A stretch of DNA of 64,000 bases. Source: Methylobacter sp. (lineage in GTDB: Bacteria; Pseudomonadota; Gammaproteobacteria; Methylococcales; Methylomonadaceae). This document shows positions 5,756 through 16,719 of this stretch, piece after piece (position 1 is the first letter of the stretch; each line of letters opens with the position of its first letter). A program made the translations under genes and the position numbers. The notes below the pieces were generated by a model. The model saw only the letters and a program-made list of their open reading frames with translations. It was not told the origin of the DNA and searched no databases. Location: positions 39,931 to 103,930 of the forward strand of contig NZ_JAUXVR010000009.1 of the NCBI RefSeq assembly GCF_030680395.1, read 5' to 3'.

Positions 5756-7366
<1,611 letters not shown>

Positions 7367-7376
7367 CAGACACCCC

Positions 7377-7412
7377 GTAGGTCGGGTTAGCAGCCTTATC
7401 GCGTAACCCGAC
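7377..7412. repeat. REP hairpin (GTAGGTCGGGTTAGC...GCGTAACCCGAC) upstream of the RAYT gene
   Basis: It is an inverted repeat GTCGGGTTA(G/C)...TAACCCGAC. The same unit recurs at 7986-8075 and 8187-8283. Confidence 0.8.
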
Positions 7413-7426
7413 AACCAATCTCACAT

Positions 7427-7963
7427 ATGCAATACAGACGCGCATTCACCCCCGGCGGCTCCTTCTTCTTCACTCTAGTGACGCAAGGAAGAAAACCCAT
7501 TTTCTCCAACCCCGAAGCAGTCGAAGTCCTGCGCAACGCCTTTCGTAACGTCCGCAAATCGCGTCCATTCGAAATCGATGCAATGGTGGTTATGCCTGAT
7601 CACCTACATTGCATTTGGACATTACCGCCCGGCGATGCTGATTTCGCGACCCGTTGGCGATTAATCAAAACCTGGTTTACCAAGCATTGCGACCCGGCCT
7701 TACACAGCATGCGTAACGCATCCCGCCAAGCGCGAGGCGAGCAGGCCATTTGGCAACACCGTTATTGGGAGCATTTGCTTCGTGACGAAAGCGATTTCGA
7801 ACGTCACGTCGATTACATACATTACAACCCGGTCAAACATGGATTAGCATCATCGCCCATAGAATGGCCGTATTCCAGTTTCCAGCGTTATGTCGAAGCC
7901 GGTATTTTTCCGCCCGATTGGGGCAAAAACGCCATTAATTTTGCAGGCATAGGTCATGAATAA
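7427..7963 (+). mobile_element. REP-associated tyrosine transposase (RAYT, IS200/IS605 Y1 HUH family)
   Basis: 178 aa with the HUH motif in VMPDHLHCIWTLP and the catalytic-Tyr helix YIHYNPVKHG. It is flanked on both sides by its cognate REP hairpins. Confidence 0.85.
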
Positions 7964-7985
7964 ACCCCACAACAAATCACAAACC

Positions 7986-8075
7986 GTAGGTCGGGTTAGC
8001 GATAGCGTAACCCGACAAGCCCCCGATGCACCAAAGACCGAAAATGTCGGGTTACGCTGCGCTAACCCGACCTAC
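7986..8075. repeat. REP pair in inverted orientation (REPIN-like doublet)
   Basis: GTAGGTCGGGTTAGCGATAGCGTAACCCGAC lies at 7986-8016. Its inverted partner GTCGGGTTACGCTGCGCTAACCCGACCTAC lies at 8046-8075. Confidence 0.8.
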
Positions 8076-8080
8076 GAGGC

Positions 8081-8176
8081 TATTCCGGTTTCCAGCATTA
8101 TGTCGAAGCCGGTATTCTTCCGCCCGATTGGGGTCAAAACATCATCAATTTTGAAGGCATTGGACATGAATAAACA
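8081..8176 (+). pseudogene. duplicated 3' fragment of the RAYT gene
   Basis: 8081-8176 aligns with 7871-7966, the last ~96 nt of the RAYT gene through its stop, with scattered mismatches. It is followed by a second REP doublet. Confidence 0.7.
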
Positions 8177-8186
8177 TAATGGCAAT

Positions 8187-8283
8187 GTAGGTCGGGTTAG
8201 CGGTAGCGTAACCCGACAAGCCCCCGACGAACATGTCGGGTTACGCTACGCTAACCCGACCTACGAGGCTAACCCGACCTACG
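8187..8283. repeat. second REP doublet plus an extra REP half-site
   Basis: One REP lies at 8187-8217 and its inverted partner at 8235-8264. An extra CTAACCCGACCTAC half-site lies at 8268-8283. Confidence 0.8.
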
Positions 8284-8285
8284 GG

Positions 8286-8379
8286 GCTGACCGAAACGCT
8301 GGGCGAGCAAATGGCGAAAGGCGCGAAACTGGATCAACTGATACGCCAGAAGTTGGGAGGCTTGGGGTATGAGTTTTGA
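8286..8379 (+). repeat. 94-bp duplicate of the hsdM 3' end (copy of 7273-7366) carrying the hsdS start
   Basis: By hand alignment there are 4 mismatches in 94 nt. This copy contains the hsdS ATG (8369) inside ATGAGTTTTGA, the ancestral stop/start overlap. Confidence 0.85.
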
Positions 8380-9703
8380 GGCTGCCACTTACCAAGTTGA
8401 ACAATTAATTAGTAAGAAATTCTTGGAAATTGGGGATGGCTATCGCGCAAAAAACAGTGAGCTTTCCTCCACCGGTATCCCGTTTGCGCGAGCTGCAAAT
8501 ATCAACGATGGATTTAAATTTAACGATCCTGATTTTTTTCCCGAAGCTGATCTAGCAAAAGTAGGAAATAAAATCAGCAAACCAGGTGATGTGGTGTTTA
8601 CATCGAAAGGCACCGTAGGCCGGTTTGCTTTGGTCGGTGCAAATACCCCCCGATTCGTTTATTCGCCGCAGCTATGTTTTTGGCGCTCTTTGGATCAAAA
8701 AAAGTTATTGCCAGAATATCTCTATTACTGGATGAACAGCCAAGAATTTTTAAATCAGCTTGGCTATTTGAAGGGCCAGACTGATATGGCTGATTATGTC
8801 AGTCTGAGGGATCAGCGAAAAATTACGGCGACGATACCAAGTACTGATGTGCAGCAATTAGTTGTAGCTGTATTAAAACCAATTGATGACCGCATCGCAC
8901 TACTACGCAAAACTAACACCACCCTCGAAGCCATCGCGCAGGCCCTGTTCAAATCCTGGTTCGTGGACTTCGACCCCGTGCGCGCCAAACAACAAGGTCG
9001 CGAGCCGGAAGGCATGGATGCCGAAGCCGCCGCGCTCTTCCCCGACAGCTTCGAGGAATCGGAACTGGGGTTGGTGCCGAGTGGCTGGCGGGTTGCGCCT
9101 GTTGGTGATGTCGTGGAAATCGTAGGTGGTGGCACCCCGAATACAAAAGAGACGGAATATTGGGAGCCAGCTGAATTTGCTTGGACCACTCCTAGAGATT
9201 TATCTGGTTTGCAATCGCCAGTACTTTTGAAAACTGAGCGGTTATTGTCAGCAAAAGGTGTGTTAAAAGTAAGTTCAGGATTACTACCAATTGGCACTTT
9301 ATTGCTCTCTTCTCGTGCACCAATTGGCTATCTCGCTATTGCTCAAATACCACTAGCGATCAATCAAGGCTACATCGCTATTTTGCCAAGCAGTCAGTTA
9401 CCGCCGCTTTATATGTATTTTTGGTGCAAGCAAAACATGGAAGTAATCAAGAGCCGCGCTAATGGATCGACTTTTATGGAGATAAGCAAAAAAGCCTTTC
9501 GGCCAATACCTGTGCAGGTTCCGCCTGTGGATCTGTTAGATAATTTTTTAGACGTCGCAAATCCAATTTTTACTCGCTTGACAGAAAACGAAAAACAAGC
9601 CCAAACCCTAACCACCCTCCGCGACACCTTGCTCCCCCGCCTGATCTCCGGTCAGCTGCGCTTGCCCGAAGCCAAAACATTGCTTGAGGAAACCATCGCA
9701 TGA
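8369..9703 (+). CDS. hsdS: type I restriction-modification system, specificity subunit HsdS
   Basis: 444 aa with two target-recognition domains. They are separated by a conserved coiled-coil spacer (LEAIAQALFKSWFVDFDPV) and followed by a conserved C-terminal helix (LTTLRDTLLPRLISGQLRL). Confidence 0.9.
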   Translation: MSFEAATYQVEQLISKKFLEIGDGYRAKNSELSSTGIPFARAANINDGFKFNDPDFFPEADLAKVGNKISKPGDVVFTSKGTVGRFALVGANTPRFVYSPQLCFWRSLDQKKLLPEYLYYWMNSQEFLNQLGYLKGQTDMADYVSLRDQRKITATIPSTDVQQLVVAVLKPIDDRIALLRKTNTTLEAIAQALFKSWFVDFDPVRAKQQGREPEGMDAEAAALFPDSFEESELGLVPSGWRVAPVGDVVEIVGGGTPNTKETEYWEPAEFAWTTPRDLSGLQSPVLLKTERLLSAKGVLKVSSGLLPIGTLLLSSRAPIGYLAIAQIPLAINQGYIAILPSSQLPPLYMYFWCKQNMEVIKSRANGSTFMEISKKAFRPIPVQVPPVDLLDNFLDVANPIFTRLTENEKQAQTLTTLRDTLLPRLISGQLRLPEAKTLLEETIA

Positions 9704-11208
9704 TAGACCCGTATCATTTGGAAGACCTGTCGCTGCTGGCAGAATCGGTCGACCTGGAATGCAAACTGGCGCAAGGCCAGGACGGCAAGGGTGAAGTGCC
9801 GAAAGATTTCTGGTCGACTTATTCGGCGATGGCCAACATGCACGGTGGCGTGGTGCTGCTGGGTGTGCGCGAAAAGGCCGGTGTATTCAGTGTCGCCGGC
9901 ATTGCCAATGTCGAGAAAATCCGTACCGATTTGTTCAATACCCTGAACAATCGCGCCAAGGTCAGCATGAATTTGCTGACGGATAAGGATGTGACGGCAG
10001 TAACGATGGAAGGAAAAACGGTGTTAATGATCCGTATACCTGCAGCGACGCGCAAACAAAAGCCGGTGTATCTCAACGGCCAGCCCCTGGGCAATACCTA
10101 TCGCCGCCTGCATGAAGGCGACCGTTCTTGCGACGACGAAACCGTCAAGCGCATGCTGGCCGAGCAACTGGAAGACAGTCACGACACGCGCATCCTCAAC
10201 AAATTTGGCTTGCAGGACCTGGATATAGAAAGCCTGCATGCCTATCGCAATGCTTTTGCTGTGCATCGCCCCGGGCATCCGTGGATCGATGTAACCGATA
10301 TTGATTTTCTGCGGCTGATCGGCGGTTGGCGCGAGCATCGAACCTCCGGCGAAACTGGGCTGACGGCAGCGGGGCTGTTGATGTTTGGGCATTGGCCATC
10401 CATCGTAGAGGCGTTTCCGCTGTATTTTCTCGATTATCAGGAACGGCCTGCCGACCAGGATTCTCAAACCCGTTGGCTGGATCGCGTGGTCCCCGACGGT
10501 TCCTGGTCCGGCAATTTGTTTGATTTTTTTCGTCGCGTGATTCGCAAGCTGACCGCCGACCTGAAGGTACCCTTTGTCTTGAAAGGCGATACCCGGATTG
10601 ATGACACGCCGGTGCATCAGGCGCTGCGCGAAGCCTTGGTAAATACCCTGATCCATGCGGACTATTCAGATCGTGCCTCAGTACTGGTGGTGAAACAACC
10701 GGCGGGATTCGTTTTTCGCAATCCCGGCATGATGCGGGTTCCCGTAGAGCAAGCTTTGCACGGCGGAGCCAGCGACTGTCGTAATCGCACACTGCACCAG
10801 ATGTTTCTGTTCATCAACTTGGGGGAAAGGGCGGGCTCTGGTCTGCCGAAAATTCGCGCAGGCTGGGAGACAGCAGGAAACATTATGCGCTTGTTTGATT
10901 CGTGCGAACCATTTGATCAGACCCTGCTCGAGATGGATTGGGTGCAGCCCTCTCTAACGGATTCCATCGAAAGTTCACCGATAAGTTCACCGATAGGTTC
11001 ACCGATAGGCTCACCAAAAACCGGGGAAAAAATTCTTCAACAACTTCGTGAAAACCCGCAATGTTCGACTCAGCAATTGGGCGATGCGCTAGGTATCAGC
11101 AAACGCGCTGTTTTGAAGCAAATTGAGAAACTTAAGCAACAAGGGCGCTTGGCGCGTATTGGTTCGGCGAAGGGTGGCCACTGGCAAGTATTGGAACAAA
11201 AACCATGA
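9700..11208 (+). CDS. AlbA_2 (Schlafen-type, divergent AAA_4) + HATPase_c_4-like + C-terminal winged-HTH protein embedded in the hsd operon
   Basis: The N-terminus reads ESVDLECK...[20 protein letters not shown] (AlbA_2/Schlafen core pattern E..LEFK...AfaN..GG.l.iGV). The middle reads [14 protein letters not shown]...FRNPG (RecG-C-terminal-like HATPase_c_4). The C-terminal wHTH reads [33 protein letters not shown] stop/start overlaps occur at both ends (9700-9703 and 11205-11208). Confidence 0.8.
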
Positions 11209-14200
11209 CCGAAGATCAACTGGAACAAGAAACCCTAAGCTGGCTGGCCGATGTCGGCTACACGGCTGTCTATGGCCCCGAGATTGCGGTGGACGGCAGT
11301 GCGCCCGAGCGCAGCAATTATATCCAGGTGGTTTTGGTCGAACGCTTGCGTAATGCGATCAATCGGCTCAATCCTCTGGTTCCGCTGGTCGCCCGCGAAG
11401 ATGCCTTGCAGCAGGTCTTGAATCTGGATACGCCGGTGCTGCTGGCGGCCAATCGACACTTTCACCGCTTGCTGGTCAACGGTGTGCCGGTGGAATATCA
11501 AAAACAGGCTGAAACACGCGGCGATTTTGTGCGCCTGATCGATTTTGAGGATGTTGCTGCCAATGAATGGCTGGCGATTAATCAGTTCTCGATCAAGGGC
11601 CCAAAATATACCCGCCGCCCCGATATCATCCTGTTCATCAATGGCTTGCCGCTGGTGCTGCTGGAGCTGAAGAACCCTGTCGACCTCACTGCCGATATCT
11701 GGAAGGCCTACGACCAGATTGACACTTACAAAGAGCAGATTCCAGATGTGTTCCAGTACAACGAAGTGCTGGTGATTTCGGACGGCACCGAAGCGCTGAT
11801 GGGGTCGCTTTCTGCCGACAAAGAGCGTTTTATGGCATGGCGCACGATTGATGGCGTGGAGCTTGATCCGCTCGGTCAGTTTAACGAACTGGAAACACTG
11901 GTGCGCGGTGTGTTGGCTCCGGCTTATCTGCTGGGTTTTTTGCGCTTTTTTGTGCTGTTTGAAGATGACGGCACGCTGGTCAAGAAGATCGCCGGTTATC
12001 ACCAGTTCCATGCGGTGCGTTCGGCCATCACGCAGGTGGTAGCCGCATCACGCCCCGGCGGCAGTCACAAGGGCGGCGTGGTCTGGCATACGCAAGGCTC
12101 CGGCAAGAGCATCACCATGACCTGCTTTGCCGCCCGCGTGATGCGGGAAGTGGCGATGGAAAACCCGACCATCGTGGTGATTACCGACCGCAATGATCTG
12201 GATGGGCAATTGTTTGGCGTGTTTTCGCTGTCGCAGGATTTATTGCGCGAGCAGCCGGTACAGGGCGAAACCCGTCAGGATTTACGCGCCAAGCTGGCCA
12301 ATCGTCCTTCCGGCGGCATCGTGTTTGCGACGATCCAGAAGTTCATGCCCGGCGAGGATGAAGACAGCTTCCCTGTGCTGTCGGATCGTCACAATATCGT
12401 GGTGATTGCCGATGAAGCGCACCGCACCCAGTACGGTTTTGAGGCAAAACTCAAAACTGTCCGTCGTACCCACTCCCCGATAGAAGCTTTCGGGGGCAAA
12501 CTTAACAGGAATGACGACGTTTTGATGGCTGCCGAAGAGCCGGCCAGCTATTTAACGCGCTATCAGGTCGGTTACGCCCAACATTTACGTGATGCACTGC
12601 CGAATGCCACCTTCGTCGCTTTTACAGGCACGCCCGTATCCTCCGAAGACCGCGATACCCGTTCTGTGTTCGGCGATTACATCCACATTTACGACATGCA
12701 GCAGGCCCGCGAAGACGGCGCGACAGTGGCGATTTATTTTGAGTCACGGCTGGCCAAGCTGGGTCTGAAGGAAGAGTCATTGCCAGACATCGACGCCGAA
12801 GTCGATGAACTGGCGGAAGACGAGGAAGAAGACCAGCAAGCCCGGCTGAAGAGTCGCTGGGCGGCGCTGGAAAGCGTCGTTGGTGCAGAACCCCGCATCC
12901 GGCAAGTGGCCGCAGATCTGGTCGCTCACTTCGAGGAACGCAGCAAGGCACAATCCGGCAAGGCCATGGTGGTGGCAATGAGCCGCGAAATCTGCGCGCA
13001 CCTGTACAACGCCATCATCGCGCTACGCCCCGACTGGCACGATGAAGACCCGGAAAAGGGTGTGATCAAGGTGGTGATGACCGGCTCCGCCAGCGACAAG
13101 CCACTGCTGCGACCGCATATCTATTCCAAGCAAGTCAAAAAGCGTCTGGAAAAGCGCTTCAAAGACCCCGAAGATCCAATACGTCTGGTGATCGTGCGCG
13201 ATATGTGGCTGACCGGCTTTGACGCGCCTTGTGTGCATACGATGTATGTGGACAAGCCGATGAAGGGTCACAACCTGATGCAAGCCATTGCGCGAGTCAA
13301 CCGCGTGTTCCGCGACAAACAGGGCGGCTTGGTGGTTGATTACATCGGCATCGCCAATGACCTGCAACACGCATTAAAGGAATACACCGCCAGTAAAGGA
13401 CGCGGACGCCCGACCGTCGATTCTCATGAAGCCTATGCCGTGCTGGAAGAAAAGCTCGATATATTACGGGCCATGCTGCACGAATTTGATTACAGCGGAT
13501 TCCTGACGGGTGGCCATAGCATGCTGGCGAAAACTGCCAACCATGTTCTTGGCATCAAGGATGGCAAGAAACGCTTTGGCGATACTGCCCTGGCGATGTC
13601 CAAAGCCTTTACTCTTTGCTGCACGCTGGACGAAGCCAAGGCCGTGCGTGAAGAAGTCGCCTTCTTTCAGGCGGTCAAAGTGTTGCTGACGAAGAAAGAA
13701 ATCAGCGGCAAAAAGAAAACCAATGAAGAGCGCGAACTCGCCATCCGCCAGATCATCGGCTCGGCGGTGGTATCCGAAGAAGTCGTCGACATCTTCAATG
13801 CCGTGGGGCTGGATAAACCGAATATCGGCATCCTGGACGAAGACTTCCTGAACGACGTGCGTAACCTGCCGGAGCGCAACCTCGCCGTGGAATTGCTGGA
13901 GCGCTTGCTGGAAGGCGAAATCAAAACCCGCTTTGCCAGCAATGTCGTGCAGCAGAATAAATTCTCAGAACTGCTCGCCAACGTCATCAAGCGTTATCAG
14001 AACCGTTCTATCGAAACCGCACAGGTGATGGAAGAGCTGATCCAGATGGCAAAAAAATTCAAGGAGGCAGTAAACCGCGGAACCGATCTTGGTCTCAACA
14101 GTGACGAACTAGCCTTCTACGATGCGCTGGCGAACAACGAAGATTCTGTGCGCGAACTGGGTGATGAAACCCTGAAGAAAATCGCCCATGAGCTGGCGGA

Positions 14201-14375
14201 AAATTTACGCAAAAGCACCAGTGTAGATTGGGCTGTTCGTGAAAGCGTCCGTGCCAGCTTGAGATTGATGGTAAAGCGGATATTGCGTAAATATAAATAC
14301 CCACCTAACAAACAGGAAGAGGCTGTGCAACTGGTGCTGGAGCAGGCAGAAAGTTTGAGTGCAGAGTGGGCTTAA
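11205..14375 (+). CDS. hsdR: type I restriction enzyme, restriction (helicase-nuclease) subunit HsdR
   Basis: 1056 aa. The N-terminal nuclease region reads [21 protein letters not shown]2 motifs are present: GSGKS ([11 protein letters not shown]), DEAH ([11 protein letters not shown]), FTGTP and QAIARVNR. A type I HsdR C-terminal domain follows. Confidence 0.93.
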
Positions 14376-14860
14376 GTTATCATTTAGTGTCGAAAGTAAT
14401 TGCGAGGTGACTTCGGACGGAGTTCATCCATCTTCGTACCTTTACGGGACCTTGGGTCTTGTATGACTGACCTGCTTAGGATGCGGAATGCGTTGGTTGT
14501 TAGAAAATCGGCTTAACCGGGCCGCTGTATTGATAGTTGTACAAGACATCTTTCAATTTTCTCCACTATTTAGTACTGTTTGCGCCGTCAATAAAAATAA
14601 CGAACGCATTAGAAACAATAAGACAGTGATTAACAGCTGACAAAACTTCCTCGCTCTTTTGCAACTACATGTAATTGCTACCCCACGAAATCGGGAAGAG
14701 AGTCTACCTGAGATGCCCTAAATTTCTGGAGCCGAGTTAATTCATTTAATATTCACAAGAGTTATGATAAAGTTCACATTGTCATGTAACTAATTAAATA
14801 TGCTTAATATCTAGGCAGTTACAGACCTAATAATAATAACTACAACGAGGTTTACATTAC

Positions 14861-15373
14861 ATGAAATTATTAAAAAGCGCTGTCGTAGCTACTACATTGG
14901 CACTTTCTTTAGGATCTTTTTCCGCTACTGCCGATACCTGTTTGGGCATGGCATGTATGTATAATAGAATGACTCCAATTGAAGGAATCAATGCTACTTT
15001 AGGTCAAGTTACTGAAGCATTGAACGCTATTCAGGTAAGAAACAGCGGGGGCGCGGCAGACACTGGCAAAGCCGGTGACGATGTCATTATAAACAATATC
15101 AAAGATGCACTAAAATTAAGTAAAGAAATCAATGCTAACGATAAACTTGACCGTAATCGTAACCGTGCTAATGATTATTTGAAAAAAGCTCGAACAGCTG
15201 TACAACAAGGTGATTTGATTAAGGCAACAGAAGAATTAAAAGAAGCTGAGAAACGTTTTTCAGATCTTAAAGGTATGATCGATTTAACTCAAGCCGATAG
15301 AGTATCACAACAGACCAACCTGCTAAACCGTATTATGGACACGCCCGATACCGCAGCCGGCAGCCGTAAATAA
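14861..15373 (+). CDS. hypothetical secreted helical protein
   Basis: 170 aa with signal peptide MKLLKSAVVATTLALSLGSFSATA. The body is charged, helical and repeat-like. I recognise no family. Confidence 0.5.
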   Translation: MKLLKSAVVATTLALSLGSFSATADTCLGMACMYNRMTPIEGINATLGQVTEALNAIQVRNSGGAADTGKAGDDVIINNIKDALKLSKEINANDKLDRNRNRANDYLKKARTAVQQGDLIKATEELKEAEKRFSDLKGMIDLTQADRVSQQTNLLNRIMDTPDTAAGSRK

Positions 15374-15407
15374 TACAGTTATCAACTTCACAACAATAAA
15401 ACCGGAA

Positions 15408-15432
15408 AGGCCAGAGTAAACCTTTACTCTGA
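15408..15432 (+). terminator. hairpin after the 14861-15373 gene
   Basis: CAGAGTAAA-CC-TTTACTCTG stem about 35 nt after the stop. The T tract is weak. Confidence 0.4.
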
Positions 15433-15624
15433 CCCCGGTTATTTCCACGCCCACGAAATCCACCGATTCCATAACAAGATAAATTGAATACTTCGTTAAT
15501 GGAATGAGCCCTACAAAAGCTCCTTTTTCTTAACCATAAAGTGTTTAAATAACATATGGTTGTTGTTTATTAGGGCAACTGTCCATTGTCCCTGTTTGTC
15601 GCCCGCCTGTTACGCATTACCTGA

Positions 15625-16719
15625 CTAAAGCTCCGCTTGCAGTCCAGGTATGCCAATGCGCTGGATACGCATAGCATTGTCGCCTTCTTCATAAACCGGC
15701 AATCTTCCTTCTATTTTCCAGAGCCGGAAAGCGAGCGCATGCGATAAAACACGAATCGGATAATCGCGGGGCAATTGCTGCAAATAAGGCTGTATGGTGA
15801 CAAAATCGGTCGCTCCGTACTGTTGCATGATAAAGCGAAGGCCGCCATTGGCAAGACCGATGTTATAGGCCAGCAGACCCAAAAACAGATCGTTGTGCAT
15901 CTCGGTCAGATAGTATTTTAATGTAGCGGCGGCGATAAAGGCATTGTGCCGTGGATCAAGCAATGAAGGCTTGTTTACCGCCAGCTGTTTGCCGGCCTGC
16001 GCCATGACCGCTTTCGGTACCTGGGTAATTTGAAACAGACCATGCCCACCATCCCGGCTGTCTCTGGGCAAAAAGGAGGATTCCGTCGCGGCGATGCCTT
16101 GCAGAAGATTGGGATCAATATCGAACACCTTGGCCGCTTCAACAATAGCCGGATTATAGGTCTCTGCCCGGTTAACCATCTGTAGCAATTGCGTCGGATC
16201 ATAACGCCGGTAGGCGGCGTAGACCTGATGAGCCAGCGTAACCCGGCTGGCTTCCTGCTTGCCTCCGACCAGCATGCGAAAGTGTCCGAACGCTTGGGCA
16301 AAATGGTTTTGCATCACAAACCAGCCGATGACCAGCGCAAAGCTGATAGCCAGAATCGGGGATAATATCGCCGCCCTGTCCTGCAACCATTTACGCAGCT
16401 TCCACCAGCCTATCAGCAACACGGCCGCCGCCAATATCAATCCCAATACGCCGATTGCAAACGGCAATAGGCTGGTGAAAAAACGGGTGCCGGAAAACCA
16501 GCCGGCCGAATAGCCCAACAAAATCATAACGACAAAAACCGCAGTTATTGCCAACCCCAGCACTTCAAGACCGATCATCAACAGTCTATGTTTAAAACTG
16601 GCAACCGGCGGTTTGGGCAATGTCTTTTTCGATGTTTTCCGTGGCGTTCGGGGTTTAGGTTTTACAGCCGTCTCCAGTTTGACACTGGCCCGTTTGCGAG
16701 GTTCTGCCGGTTTATTCAT
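15625..16719 (-). CDS. membrane-anchored lytic transglycosylase (SLT domain)
   Basis: 364 aa. The N-terminus is Lys/Pro-rich and is followed by several TM helices. The SLT catalytic region reads IAATESSF...GGHGLFQIT...AYNIG. Confidence 0.8.
   Translation of the reverse strand: MNKPAEPRKRASVKLETAVKPKPRTPRKTSKKTLPKPPVASFKHRLLMIGLEVLGLAITAVFVVMILLGYSAGWFSGTRFFTSLLPFAIGVLGLILAAAVLLIGWWKLRKWLQDRAAILSPILAISFALVIGWFVMQNHFAQAFGHFRMLVGGKQEASRVTLAHQVYAAYRRYDPTQLLQMVNRAETYNPAIVEAAKVFDIDPNLLQGIAATESSFLPRDSRDGGHGLFQITQVPKAVMAQAGKQLAVNKPSLLDPRHNAFIAAATLKYYLTEMHNDLFLGLLAYNIGLANGGLRFIMQQYGATDFVTIQPYLQQLPRDYPIRVLSHALAFRLWKIEGRLPVYEEGDNAMRIQRIGIPGLQAEL

Follow-up and report, generated by a model that had tools for sequence, protein, structure and literature searches.

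A Schlafen-type gene in a type I restriction-modification operon of Methylobacter: a candidate second layer of defence

The slfn gene lies between hsdS and hsdR

Bacterial Schlafens were shown to be phage-activated tRNases only in 2025-2026. Here we describe a prokaryotic Schlafen (slfn) gene embedded in a type I restriction-modification (R-M) operon on a Methylobacter sp. contig (NZ_JAUXVR010000009.1, positions 39,931 to 103,930); this whole stretch of 64,000 nucleotides (nt) is referred to as the window. The gene encodes a protein (Slfn) with a Schlafen domain, a GHKL ATPase domain and a C-terminal winged helix-turn-helix (wHTH). An earlier reading of this DNA, made from the sequence alone (the original prediction), had reported a 502-amino-acid (aa) open reading frame (ORF) between hsdS and hsdR with ATGA overlaps at both ends, which was confirmed in the ORF list and in the sequence. 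The protein strings quoted there were all present in the translation.

At the hsdS/slfn junction, the ATGA at 9700-9703 was composed of the slfn start codon (ATG, 9700-9702) and the hsdS stop codon (TGA, 9701-9703). A Shine-Dalgarno sequence, GAGGAA, was located at 9686-9691, 8 nt ahead of the ATG at 9700. At the slfn/hsdR junction, the ATGA at 11205-11208 was composed in the same way of the hsdR start codon (ATG, 11205-11207) and the slfn stop codon (TGA, 11206-11208). The gene order in the window was hsdM-(RAYT/REP)-hsdS-slfn-hsdR, where RAYT stands for REP-associated tyrosine transposase. The hsdS-slfn-hsdR part of the layout given in the original prediction was borne out, but the simple adjacency of hsdM and hsdS was not, because a RAYT gene and REP hairpins (7367-8368) lie between them. 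All features are collected in Table 1.

Table 1. Genes of the operon and domains of the Slfn protein (positions are those of the window; pLDDT, predicted local distance difference test score of the model)
Feature	Position	Strand	Evidence and remarks
hsdM, type I methyltransferase subunit, 536 aa	5756..7366	+	Pfam N6_Mtase 4.2e-106, HsdM_N 1.8e-23; PADLOC MTase_I 5e-173
REP/RAYT insertion between hsdM and hsdS	7367..8368	+	NCBIfam REP_Tyr_transpos 9.9e-62; REP copies
hsdS, type I specificity subunit, 444 aa, two target-recognition domains	8369..9703	+	Pfam Methylase_S 2.5e-27 in 2 stretches; PADLOC Specificity_I 7.8e-125
slfn, prokaryotic Schlafen gene, Slfn-GHKL-wHTH ('Schlatpase-HTH'), 502 aa	9700..11208	+	4-nt overlaps with hsdS and hsdR
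Schlafen/AlbA_2 nuclease domain (by homology), aa 15-143	9742..10128	+	Pfam PF04326 E 6.2e-10, 40.1 bits vs cut-off 25.3
Catalytic motif E15-x4-E20-x-K22	9742-9765	+	E15-SVDL-E20-C-K22; E58 = third acidic position
Middle domain, about aa 165-300, without Pfam name	10192..10599	+	pLDDT about 85-95 over aa 170-250; invariant residues
GHKL (Bergerat-fold) ATPase domain, about aa 301-415	10600..10944	+	Pfam HATPase_c_4 aa 339-398, E 2.7e-6
GHKL N-box R310-E311-A312-x2-N315...H319-A320-D321	10627-10662	+	FRNPG aa 339-343; glycine-rich GERAGSG aa 375-381
Low-complexity linker, variable length, aa 416-438, repeats	10945..11013	+	pLDDT <50; differs among relatives
C-terminal wHTH, aa 439-500	11014..11199	+	Pfam HTH_24 1e-8, HTH_11 2.1e-8 (aa 441-493)
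hsdR, type I restriction subunit, 1056 aa	11205..14375	+	Pfam HSDR_N 3.5e-50, SWI2_SNF2 7.6e-75, T1RH-like_C 1.5e-126; PADLOC REase_I 1135 bits

Domain architecture and conserved residues

The predicted succession of an AlbA_2/Schlafen domain, a HATPase_c_4 domain and a wHTH agreed with the Pfam matches. The Schlafen catalytic residues E15, E20 and K22, on whose presence the original prediction depended, were found in place and conserved. Together with E58 they were invariant in 32 relatives at 57-94% identity. The same was true of R310-E311-A312, N315, H319-A320, FRNPG and GER-GSG (residue 378 being variable), and of H193-P194-W195, D245-Y246-Q247-E248 and W269-S270-G271-N272 in the middle domain. 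When the comparison was carried down to 24% identity with 62 sequences, which take in one homologue each from Methanoculleus and Chlamydiae as well as a second paralogue, K22, E311, N315, G343 and G381 were invariant, and E15, E20 and D321 were at least 90% conserved. E58, which overlies the acidic position of 'GVDD', was invariant in close relatives only.

The SLFN-type prokaryotic Argonaute (pAgo) model of PADLOC matched aa 42-345 of the Slfn protein (9.5e-8), and the Aga PNTD1-PNTD2 model matched aa 156-351 (2.9e-8). Since the pAgo match covers aa 42-345, the protein from the Slfn domain through the middle region to GHKL appears to act as one homologous unit; the middle domain joins Slfn and GHKL within the Schlatpase supradomain. 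A dedicated model for the protein was present neither in PADLOC (2023 release) nor in NCBIfam, where the matches were partial pAgo-associated and generic HTH ones. At 50% identity the family comprised 10,259 clusters when matches with E ≤ 1e-3 were counted, and 1,048 when the limit was E ≤ 1e-30.

Mean identity to close relatives was 0.68-0.77 for the Slfn, middle and GHKL parts, 0.48 for the wHTH and 0.15 for the linker, the wHTH being the least conserved folded part of the protein. The linker repeat unit and its copy number varied in almost every relative, with ETPGE, SVETADA and SSGKSTLK repeats elsewhere. In sister proteins of about 610-690 aa, the Slfn-GHKL core was kept (45-68% identical; many at 45-60% over aa 1-415) and the gene held the same hsdS-hsdR slot, with the wHTH replaced by a C-terminal domain of about 250 aa that gave no Pfam match. 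Members of this sister group are found at the surveyed loci L036, L030 and L101 (the last a Pseudoalteromonas plasmid coding sequence at 6959-8944) and among many of the proteins P0122-P0269. The order on Pseudoalteromonas plasmids was hsdM-hsdS-'RNA-binding domain-containing protein' (661 aa)-hsdR.

These observations bear on whether the protein could instead be a transcriptional regulator of the hsd operon, with the wHTH binding an operator and the N-terminal domains only sensing a ligand. R-M systems use dedicated controller proteins, the wHTH is similar to MarR, ArsR and BirA-type regulators, and the source names of the protein include 'predicted HTH transcriptional regulator'. Even so, such a role is considered very unlikely. 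A repressor needs no invariant nuclease and ATPase residues across deep divergence, and the wHTH is both poorly conserved and exchanged for an unrelated domain at the same slot. With its 502 aa, its enzymatic domains, its place in the middle of the operon and not upstream, and an HTH that is swapped in sister proteins, the protein does not fit the R-M controller (C) class. Moreover, the RefSeq name is now 'RNA-binding domain-containing protein', and the characterised relatives are RNases (PMC13056530, PMC13462974). The role of defence effector, which the original prediction had preferred to 'transcriptional regulator', is far better supported.

Relationship to Schlafen nucleases

The full-length AlphaFold2 (AF2) model was searched with Foldseek, and its matches were 3LMM (3.7e-17), 2KYY, histidine-kinase catalytic domains, and wHTH folds of the MarR and Z-alpha types; in the model the wHTH consisted of helices at 440-480 followed by a beta wing. 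No Schlafens were among the matches of this full-length search, and therefore the N-domain was modelled alone and a family profile was run against PDB sequences. Foldseek with the N-domain-only model placed SLFN or SAMD9 AlbA_2 domains at all of ranks 6-26, after 2KYY and 3LMM. The family profile matched 2KYY (4.4e-23), 3LMM (6.4e-17) and then SLFN13 (5yd0, 2e-7), as well as SLFN14, SLFN12, SLFN11, SLFN5 and the CRISPR-associated CbCash (9ylu). In the profile alignment, ESVDLECK (E-x4-E-x-K) was put onto ESASIEFK of SLFN13, the glutamates of which we read as the two catalytic glutamates of that enzyme. Taken together, homology to Schlafen nucleases appears well supported by sequence comparison and modestly supported by the models.

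Conservation of the slot and co-inheritance with the restriction genes

Relatives were collected as 17 genome loci (single-protein scan) and 80 metagenome loci (alignment scan), the wider sample being taken from metagenomes because the genome-collection scan gave only the 17. The metagenome loci were the best 80 of at least 565 matches, and the survey covers relatives of at least 49% identity, not the whole family. HsdM, HsdS and HsdR were located in these loci by tblastn. There were 95 loci at 45% identity or more, and 27 of them had at least 5 kb on both sides.

Among the 27 well-flanked loci, slfn was preceded by hsdS and followed by hsdR on the same strand in 14 by a strict filter and in about 16 by inspection; 19 had any hsd gene by tblastn, and some type I gene was present in about 20. 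The slfn stop codon was within 8 nt of the hsdR start in 22 of 39 loci, with the exact 4-nt overlap in 10, and the hsdS stop overlapped the slfn start in 11 of 27. The identities of Slfn and HsdR to those of the window were correlated (Spearman 0.89, n=27), as were those of Slfn and HsdM (0.86, n=23), indicating that slfn and the restriction genes moved as one module from 90% to about 55% identity. The survey showed that the translationally coupled position between hsdS and hsdR, to which the original prediction had drawn attention, is kept in relatives and that the gene is inherited together with hsdM and hsdR.

Related type I operons serve as carriers of extra conflict genes. Accessory genes of the Fic/SoFic-like, YhcG/DUF1016 PD-(D/E)XK, DUF4276 (with a 364-aa partner), MNT-like nucleotidyltransferase and NERD-UvrD helicase types were seen at L002 (7125-8246 and 11372-12454), L005 (11552-13387), L003 (6893-9887) and L086 (3644-5614). 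A second, very divergent paralogue of slfn (22-25% identical) was located straight after hsdM in L002 (5441-6829), L003 (2135-3226) and L005 (6242-7609), which gives these loci two Schlafen genes per type I operon. Its Slfn-GHKL-wHTH architecture was confirmed by Pfam for L002, and the L003 and L005 copies were recognised by tblastn match only.

Disrupted slfn copies were also observed. An IS630-type transposase was inserted in the linker at L026 (7534-8682), and an N-terminal deletion at L011 (9875-10555) left only aa 316-502; hsdM and hsdR were intact at both loci. At L015 (9971-10681), a divergent hsd locus, only a remnant of aa 9-83 was present, and at L010 (7556-8452) the gene was truncated and hsdR was gone. 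These copies suggest that restriction can proceed without the gene, which may also carry a cost. Frameshifts in L008 and L009 were not counted as pseudogenes; the L008 contig has about 2.5x coverage.

The unrelated inserts in related hsd operons (Fic/SoFic-like, YhcG, DUF4276, MNT-like, NERD-UvrD, the second Slfn paralogue and RAYT), the destruction of slfn in several otherwise intact operons (L026, L011 and L015) and the existence of stand-alone copies would all be compatible with hitch-hiking, in which the hsdS-hsdR junction is a permissive insertion point and slfn, unconnected with restriction, would be a defence gene in its own right or a toxin of the addiction type. However, the slot, the orientation and the 4-nt overlaps persist from 90% to about 55% identity, and the divergence is correlated, which points to long-term co-inheritance and not to repeated random insertion. 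We regard hitch-hiking as highly improbable; it overlaps the reading favoured below, from which it differs only in denying synergy with restriction.

Copies of slfn outside the type I operon

It was found that 8 of the 27 well-flanked loci were without any hsd gene (tblastn). L004 (Rhodocyclus purpureus, 70% identity) and L006 (74%) had the full wHTH architecture without hsd, among housekeeping genes, their neighbours being a P-type ATPase, a Crp-like regulator, an alanine symporter and a glycine dehydrogenase. The orphan slfn gene of L045 was situated between ubiE, xseA and infB. Two genes downstream of it (14044-16335) lies a gene for an AAA_13 protein (763 aa, 9.6e-148), a family which we take to be that of the ABC ATPases including PrrC and RloC; this proximity may be coincidence. 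Stand-alone copies of the core at 58-59% identity were likewise located among housekeeping genes, and in Salmonella Infantis a 58% identical core gene was a single insertion beside tRNA-Pro. A copy on a Pantoea plasmid was also alone.

Full-length Slfn-GHKL-wHTH homologues at 30-34% identity were observed in Streptococcus phage satellites, adjoining the integrase, in a slot that is typical for defence cargo. They were found in L103 (5992-7506, Streptococcus satellite phage Javan416) and in about 9 other Javan satellites, and are annotated 'ATP-dependent DNA helicase recG'. Two loci carried slfn beside a different type I family, with HsdR of the EcoEI_R_C type (Pfam) and the gene order hsdR-hsdS-slfn-hsdM (L081) or hsdM-hsdS-hsdR-slfn (L072). 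Linkage to hsd is not obligate, and the hsd partner is dispensable for the family as a whole.

The original prediction had proposed a possible guard module like PrrC. In a model of this kind, Slfn would be latent on HsdM2S1(R2), and a phage inhibitor of the Ocr, ArdA or Stp type would free the tRNase and abort the infection. The operon slot is the same as that of prrC (PMC12707154, PMC1484252), the ATGA coupling to hsdS and hsdR, which favours co-translation, is kept in relatives, and the divergence of Slfn follows that of HsdR and HsdM. Furthermore, Slfn-HisKinase genes gave no defence in E. coli K-12 without the native host (PMC13056530), as a requirement for an R-M partner or an anti-restriction trigger would predict. 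On the other hand, prrC is always linked to an R-M locus (PMC3458546), whereas the Slfn family is not, as the orphans with 70-74% (full-length) and 58-59% (core) identity and the satellites demonstrate. The same architecture also occurs with the different type I family of L081 and L072, with BREX (PMC12839542) and with type I CRISPR (PMC13462974), which makes a specific fit to one Hsd complex unlikely as a family trait. No sequence relationship between Slfn and PrrC was seen: a match of the ABC/AAA_13 or PrrC type was not found in the protein with Pfam, NCBIfam or PADLOC. We therefore consider the PrrC-like guard rather unlikely. That Slfn is a subunit-like guard in this lineage, co-translated with HsdS and HsdR, held inactive and freed as a tRNase by a phage DNA-mimic or Stp-like inhibitor, is judged unlikely as well. 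If true, it would be a second, independently evolved guard of the PrrC type, drawn from a nuclease family that mammals use against viruses.

Another possibility is that the protein senses the products of restriction. The wHTH or the whole protein would detect DNA ends, single-stranded DNA (ssDNA) or stalled translocation complexes and then cut tRNA, halting translation during DNA degradation. Such sensing has been speculated for R-M- and CRISPR-linked Schlafens by analogy with the ssDNA activation of SLFN11 (PMC13462974). RloC, a relative of PrrC, is activated by DNA breaks (PMC12707154), and members of the Slfn family are associated with several systems that target DNA, namely type I R-M, BREX and type I CRISPR. 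By its Pfam matches the wHTH appears to be of a DNA-binding type. Nevertheless, BREX does not cleave DNA, orphan and satellite copies have no adjoining nuclease, and sister proteins without the wHTH hold the same slot. Product sensing seems decidedly unlikely.

The RAYT insertion and the borders of the island

The RAYT gene was located at 7427-7963 and is accompanied by five or more REP hairpins (GTAGGTCGGGTTAGC...GCGTAACCCGAC). A second copy of the final 27 nt of hsdM (7340-7366) was seen at 8352-8378, and it is this copy that provides the hsdS start codon. The RAYT gene likewise has its 3' end (7868-7965) duplicated at 8078-8175. 'ORF138' (7956-8372) was considered as an extra operon gene and rejected: it is made up of REP hairpins and the duplicated RAYT and hsdM tails, and is therefore probably not a gene. 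Its aa 112-138 match the end of HsdM in L007, L008 and L011 (tblastn). The insertion may alter expression of hsdS-slfn-hsdR. The same RAYT was observed between hsdM and hsdS in a Methylococcaceae metagenome-assembled genome (MAG; L013, 743-1276, 93% identical) and in an Azonexus MAG (L005, 7961-8494, 71%). Its presence at this junction in different genera implies either that the element is old there or that the junction is targeted.

The G+C content of the hsd island was 0.50-0.61, with AT-rich borders of 0.38-0.43. Housekeeping genes bound the island, with a member of the GreA/GreB family upstream and a gene for an SLT transglycosylase downstream, and in the gene content of the window no further defence genes adjoining it were seen. 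The stretch 3' of hsdR at 14400-15600 was AT-rich (G+C 0.38-0.42) and contained a 170-aa ORF (14861-15373) with a weak DUF7117 match only; this is probably where the acquired island ends. An identical Slfn protein was found on two short public contigs with unchanged neighbours. The nearest loci in the genome collection were those of Methylobacter and Methylococcaceae MAGs.

Proposed role of the Slfn protein

It seems fairly probable that the protein is an ATP-gated Schlafen RNase which forms a second layer of defence, of the abortive-infection type, supplied together with the type I enzyme in a constant ratio. By homology, the N-terminal Schlafen domain would be a metal-dependent endoribonuclease in a latent state, with tRNA as its most likely substrate. 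Binding of ATP by the GHKL domain would drive assembly, as suggested by the pAgo system RzAgo, and in the assembly the single-lobe Schlafen domains would come together in pairs to give an active nuclease with two lobes. At the C-terminus, the wHTH on its floppy linker may be an exchangeable sensor or regulatory module, and probably binds nucleic acid. As judged from the gene overlaps, slfn would share a transcript with hsdS and hsdR and be translationally coupled to them, from which it follows that Slfn could work as a second defence layer delivered with the type I enzyme. The protein itself is probably a self-contained sensor-effector, and the Hsd complex would not be needed for its silence. 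The orphan and satellite copies and the swappable C-terminus support such a self-sufficient module.

Several points weigh against this assignment. Conserved catalytic residues are no guarantee of tRNase activity. When Slfn-HisKinase fusions were tried in E. coli, they did not protect against the phages of the panel, and for about 30% of prokaryotic Schlafen (pSlfn) genes no known defence gene lies nearby (PMC13056530). The HATPase_c_4 match is barely over the threshold (27.7 bits vs the Pfam cut-off of 26). The full-length AF2 model is of medium confidence (pLDDT 74.5); for the N-domain-only model (pLDDT 70), the Foldseek scores for Schlafens were weak (E 0.015-0.15, TMq 0.3-0.42). In addition, the tight coupling to both neighbours would be compatible, too, with physical association of the protein with the Hsd complex.

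The locus is a compact natural test case, in which one type I system and one Schlafen gene are coupled on both sides within an island flanked by housekeeping genes. Close relatives occur with and without the hsd partner, and a comparison of embedded and orphan copies could separate a guard, a product sensor and an independent layer. How R-M-linked Schlafens are triggered is an open question (PMC13462974), on which the locus offers a good experimental handle. Should R-M-linked Schlafens prove to be independent modules, the gene described here would be an ordinary instance of a catalogued family.

Comparison with known systems

The architecture has been catalogued, and 2026 saw reports of its linkage to R-M, BREX and type I CRISPR; neither the R-M association nor the effector idea is new. 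The 'HisKinase-HTH' composition accounts for 19.2% of 5,930 pSlfns, mostly in defence neighbourhoods (Perez Taboada et al., Nat Microbiol 2026, PMC13056530). Like the Slfn protein, members of this class have an N-terminal Slfn nuclease domain with Ex4(E/D)xK, a histidine-kinase-like ATPase and an HTH. Ex4(E/D)xK is the conserved active-site signature of the pSlfns shown to be phage-activated tRNases (PMC13056530), and RorSlfn5 and CbCash cleave tRNA once triggered (PMC13056530, PMC13462974). The pSlfns shown to work, however, carry other sensors, an Ig-like one in RorSlfn5 and DUF262 in EcoSlfn7, and the hsd-operon setting is not analysed in that study (PMC13056530).

The Schlatpase supradomain is present in 58.6% of 103,533 prokaryotic Slfn proteins, often with a short HTH after it, and Fig. 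1f of the same report depicts it fused to HsdS or stand-alone in an R-M operon (bioRxiv 10.64898/2026.05.29.728809). The SLFN-pAgo RzAgo has to bind ATP in order to form tetramers and to cleave tRNA, and with the E314A mutation both ATP hydrolysis and defence are lost (bioRxiv 10.64898/2026.05.29.728809). The Slfn protein shares with RzAgo the PF04326 and PF13749 domains as one unit, and the N-box glutamate is at nearly the same position (E311 here, E314 in RzAgo). It differs in having no Argonaute sensor, its C-terminal module being a 60-aa wHTH. Oligomerisation, guide control and tRNA cleavage are features of RzAgo, the one protein for which nuclease activation by ATP-driven oligomerisation has been shown; the same preprint also describes small Schlatpase(+HTH) proteins.

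Slfn-ATPase-DNA-binding proteins are tightly associated with R-M (Cluster 7), BREX (Cluster 2) and type I CRISPR (Cluster 1) loci, and more than half of the defence-linked Schlafens adjoin R-M or other DNA-targeting systems (PMC13462974). In BREX loci of at least 1017 taxa, a protein with a Schlafen domain, a minimal histidine kinase plus a wHTH has been read as a backup suicidal effector (PMC12839542). These proteins have the identical architecture and lie within or beside core genes of DNA-targeting defence. Both studies are bioinformatic catalogues (PMC13462974, PMC12839542), whereas in the window there is a concrete type I case in which the gene overlaps each neighbour by 4 nt, and the slot has been surveyed. 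The original prediction had held that no function was known for this architecture in hsd operons. This stands in that no function has been demonstrated for an hsd-embedded copy, but the R-M linkage has been reported (PMC13462974; bioRxiv 10.64898/2026.05.29.728809) and the backup suicidal effector has been published for BREX (PMC12839542). What is added by the present analysis is the residue-level check of the active site, the counts of slots and overlaps, the co-inheritance with hsdM and hsdR, and the counter-evidence from orphans.

The closest solved structures are DIP2311 of Corynebacterium diphtheriae (PDB 3LMM) and PDB 2KYY. The likeness to 3LMM runs through the GHKL and wHTH parts, and 2KYY matches the N-domain; the two differ in being structural-genomics entries with no assigned function, at a sequence identity of only 16-29%. 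The mammalian SLFN11, SLFN12, SLFN13 and SLFN14, which are tRNA/rRNA endoribonucleases in antiviral defence, have a homologous nuclease lobe with E-x4-E-x-K. In them a single chain holds both lobes, and the ATPase is of the SF1 helicase type, whereas the bacterial protein has a single lobe and a GHKL ATPase; because of the single lobe, dimerisation is presumably needed.

The prr locus of E. coli (EcoprrI) is alike in arrangement. In both cases the gene of an RNase, here one predicted to target tRNA, with an NTPase regulatory domain lies between hsdS and hsdR, prrC being embedded in a type IC locus (PMC12707154, PMC1484252). The folds are nevertheless unrelated: PrrC consists of an ABC-type NTPase and its own anticodon nuclease domain, and the protein described here of Schlafen and GHKL domains. 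PrrC is always linked to R-M and is silenced by EcoprrI, whereas the Slfn-GHKL family is often stand-alone. The Slfn protein is a member of the Schlafen/Schlatpase-HTH class, not of the PrrC family.

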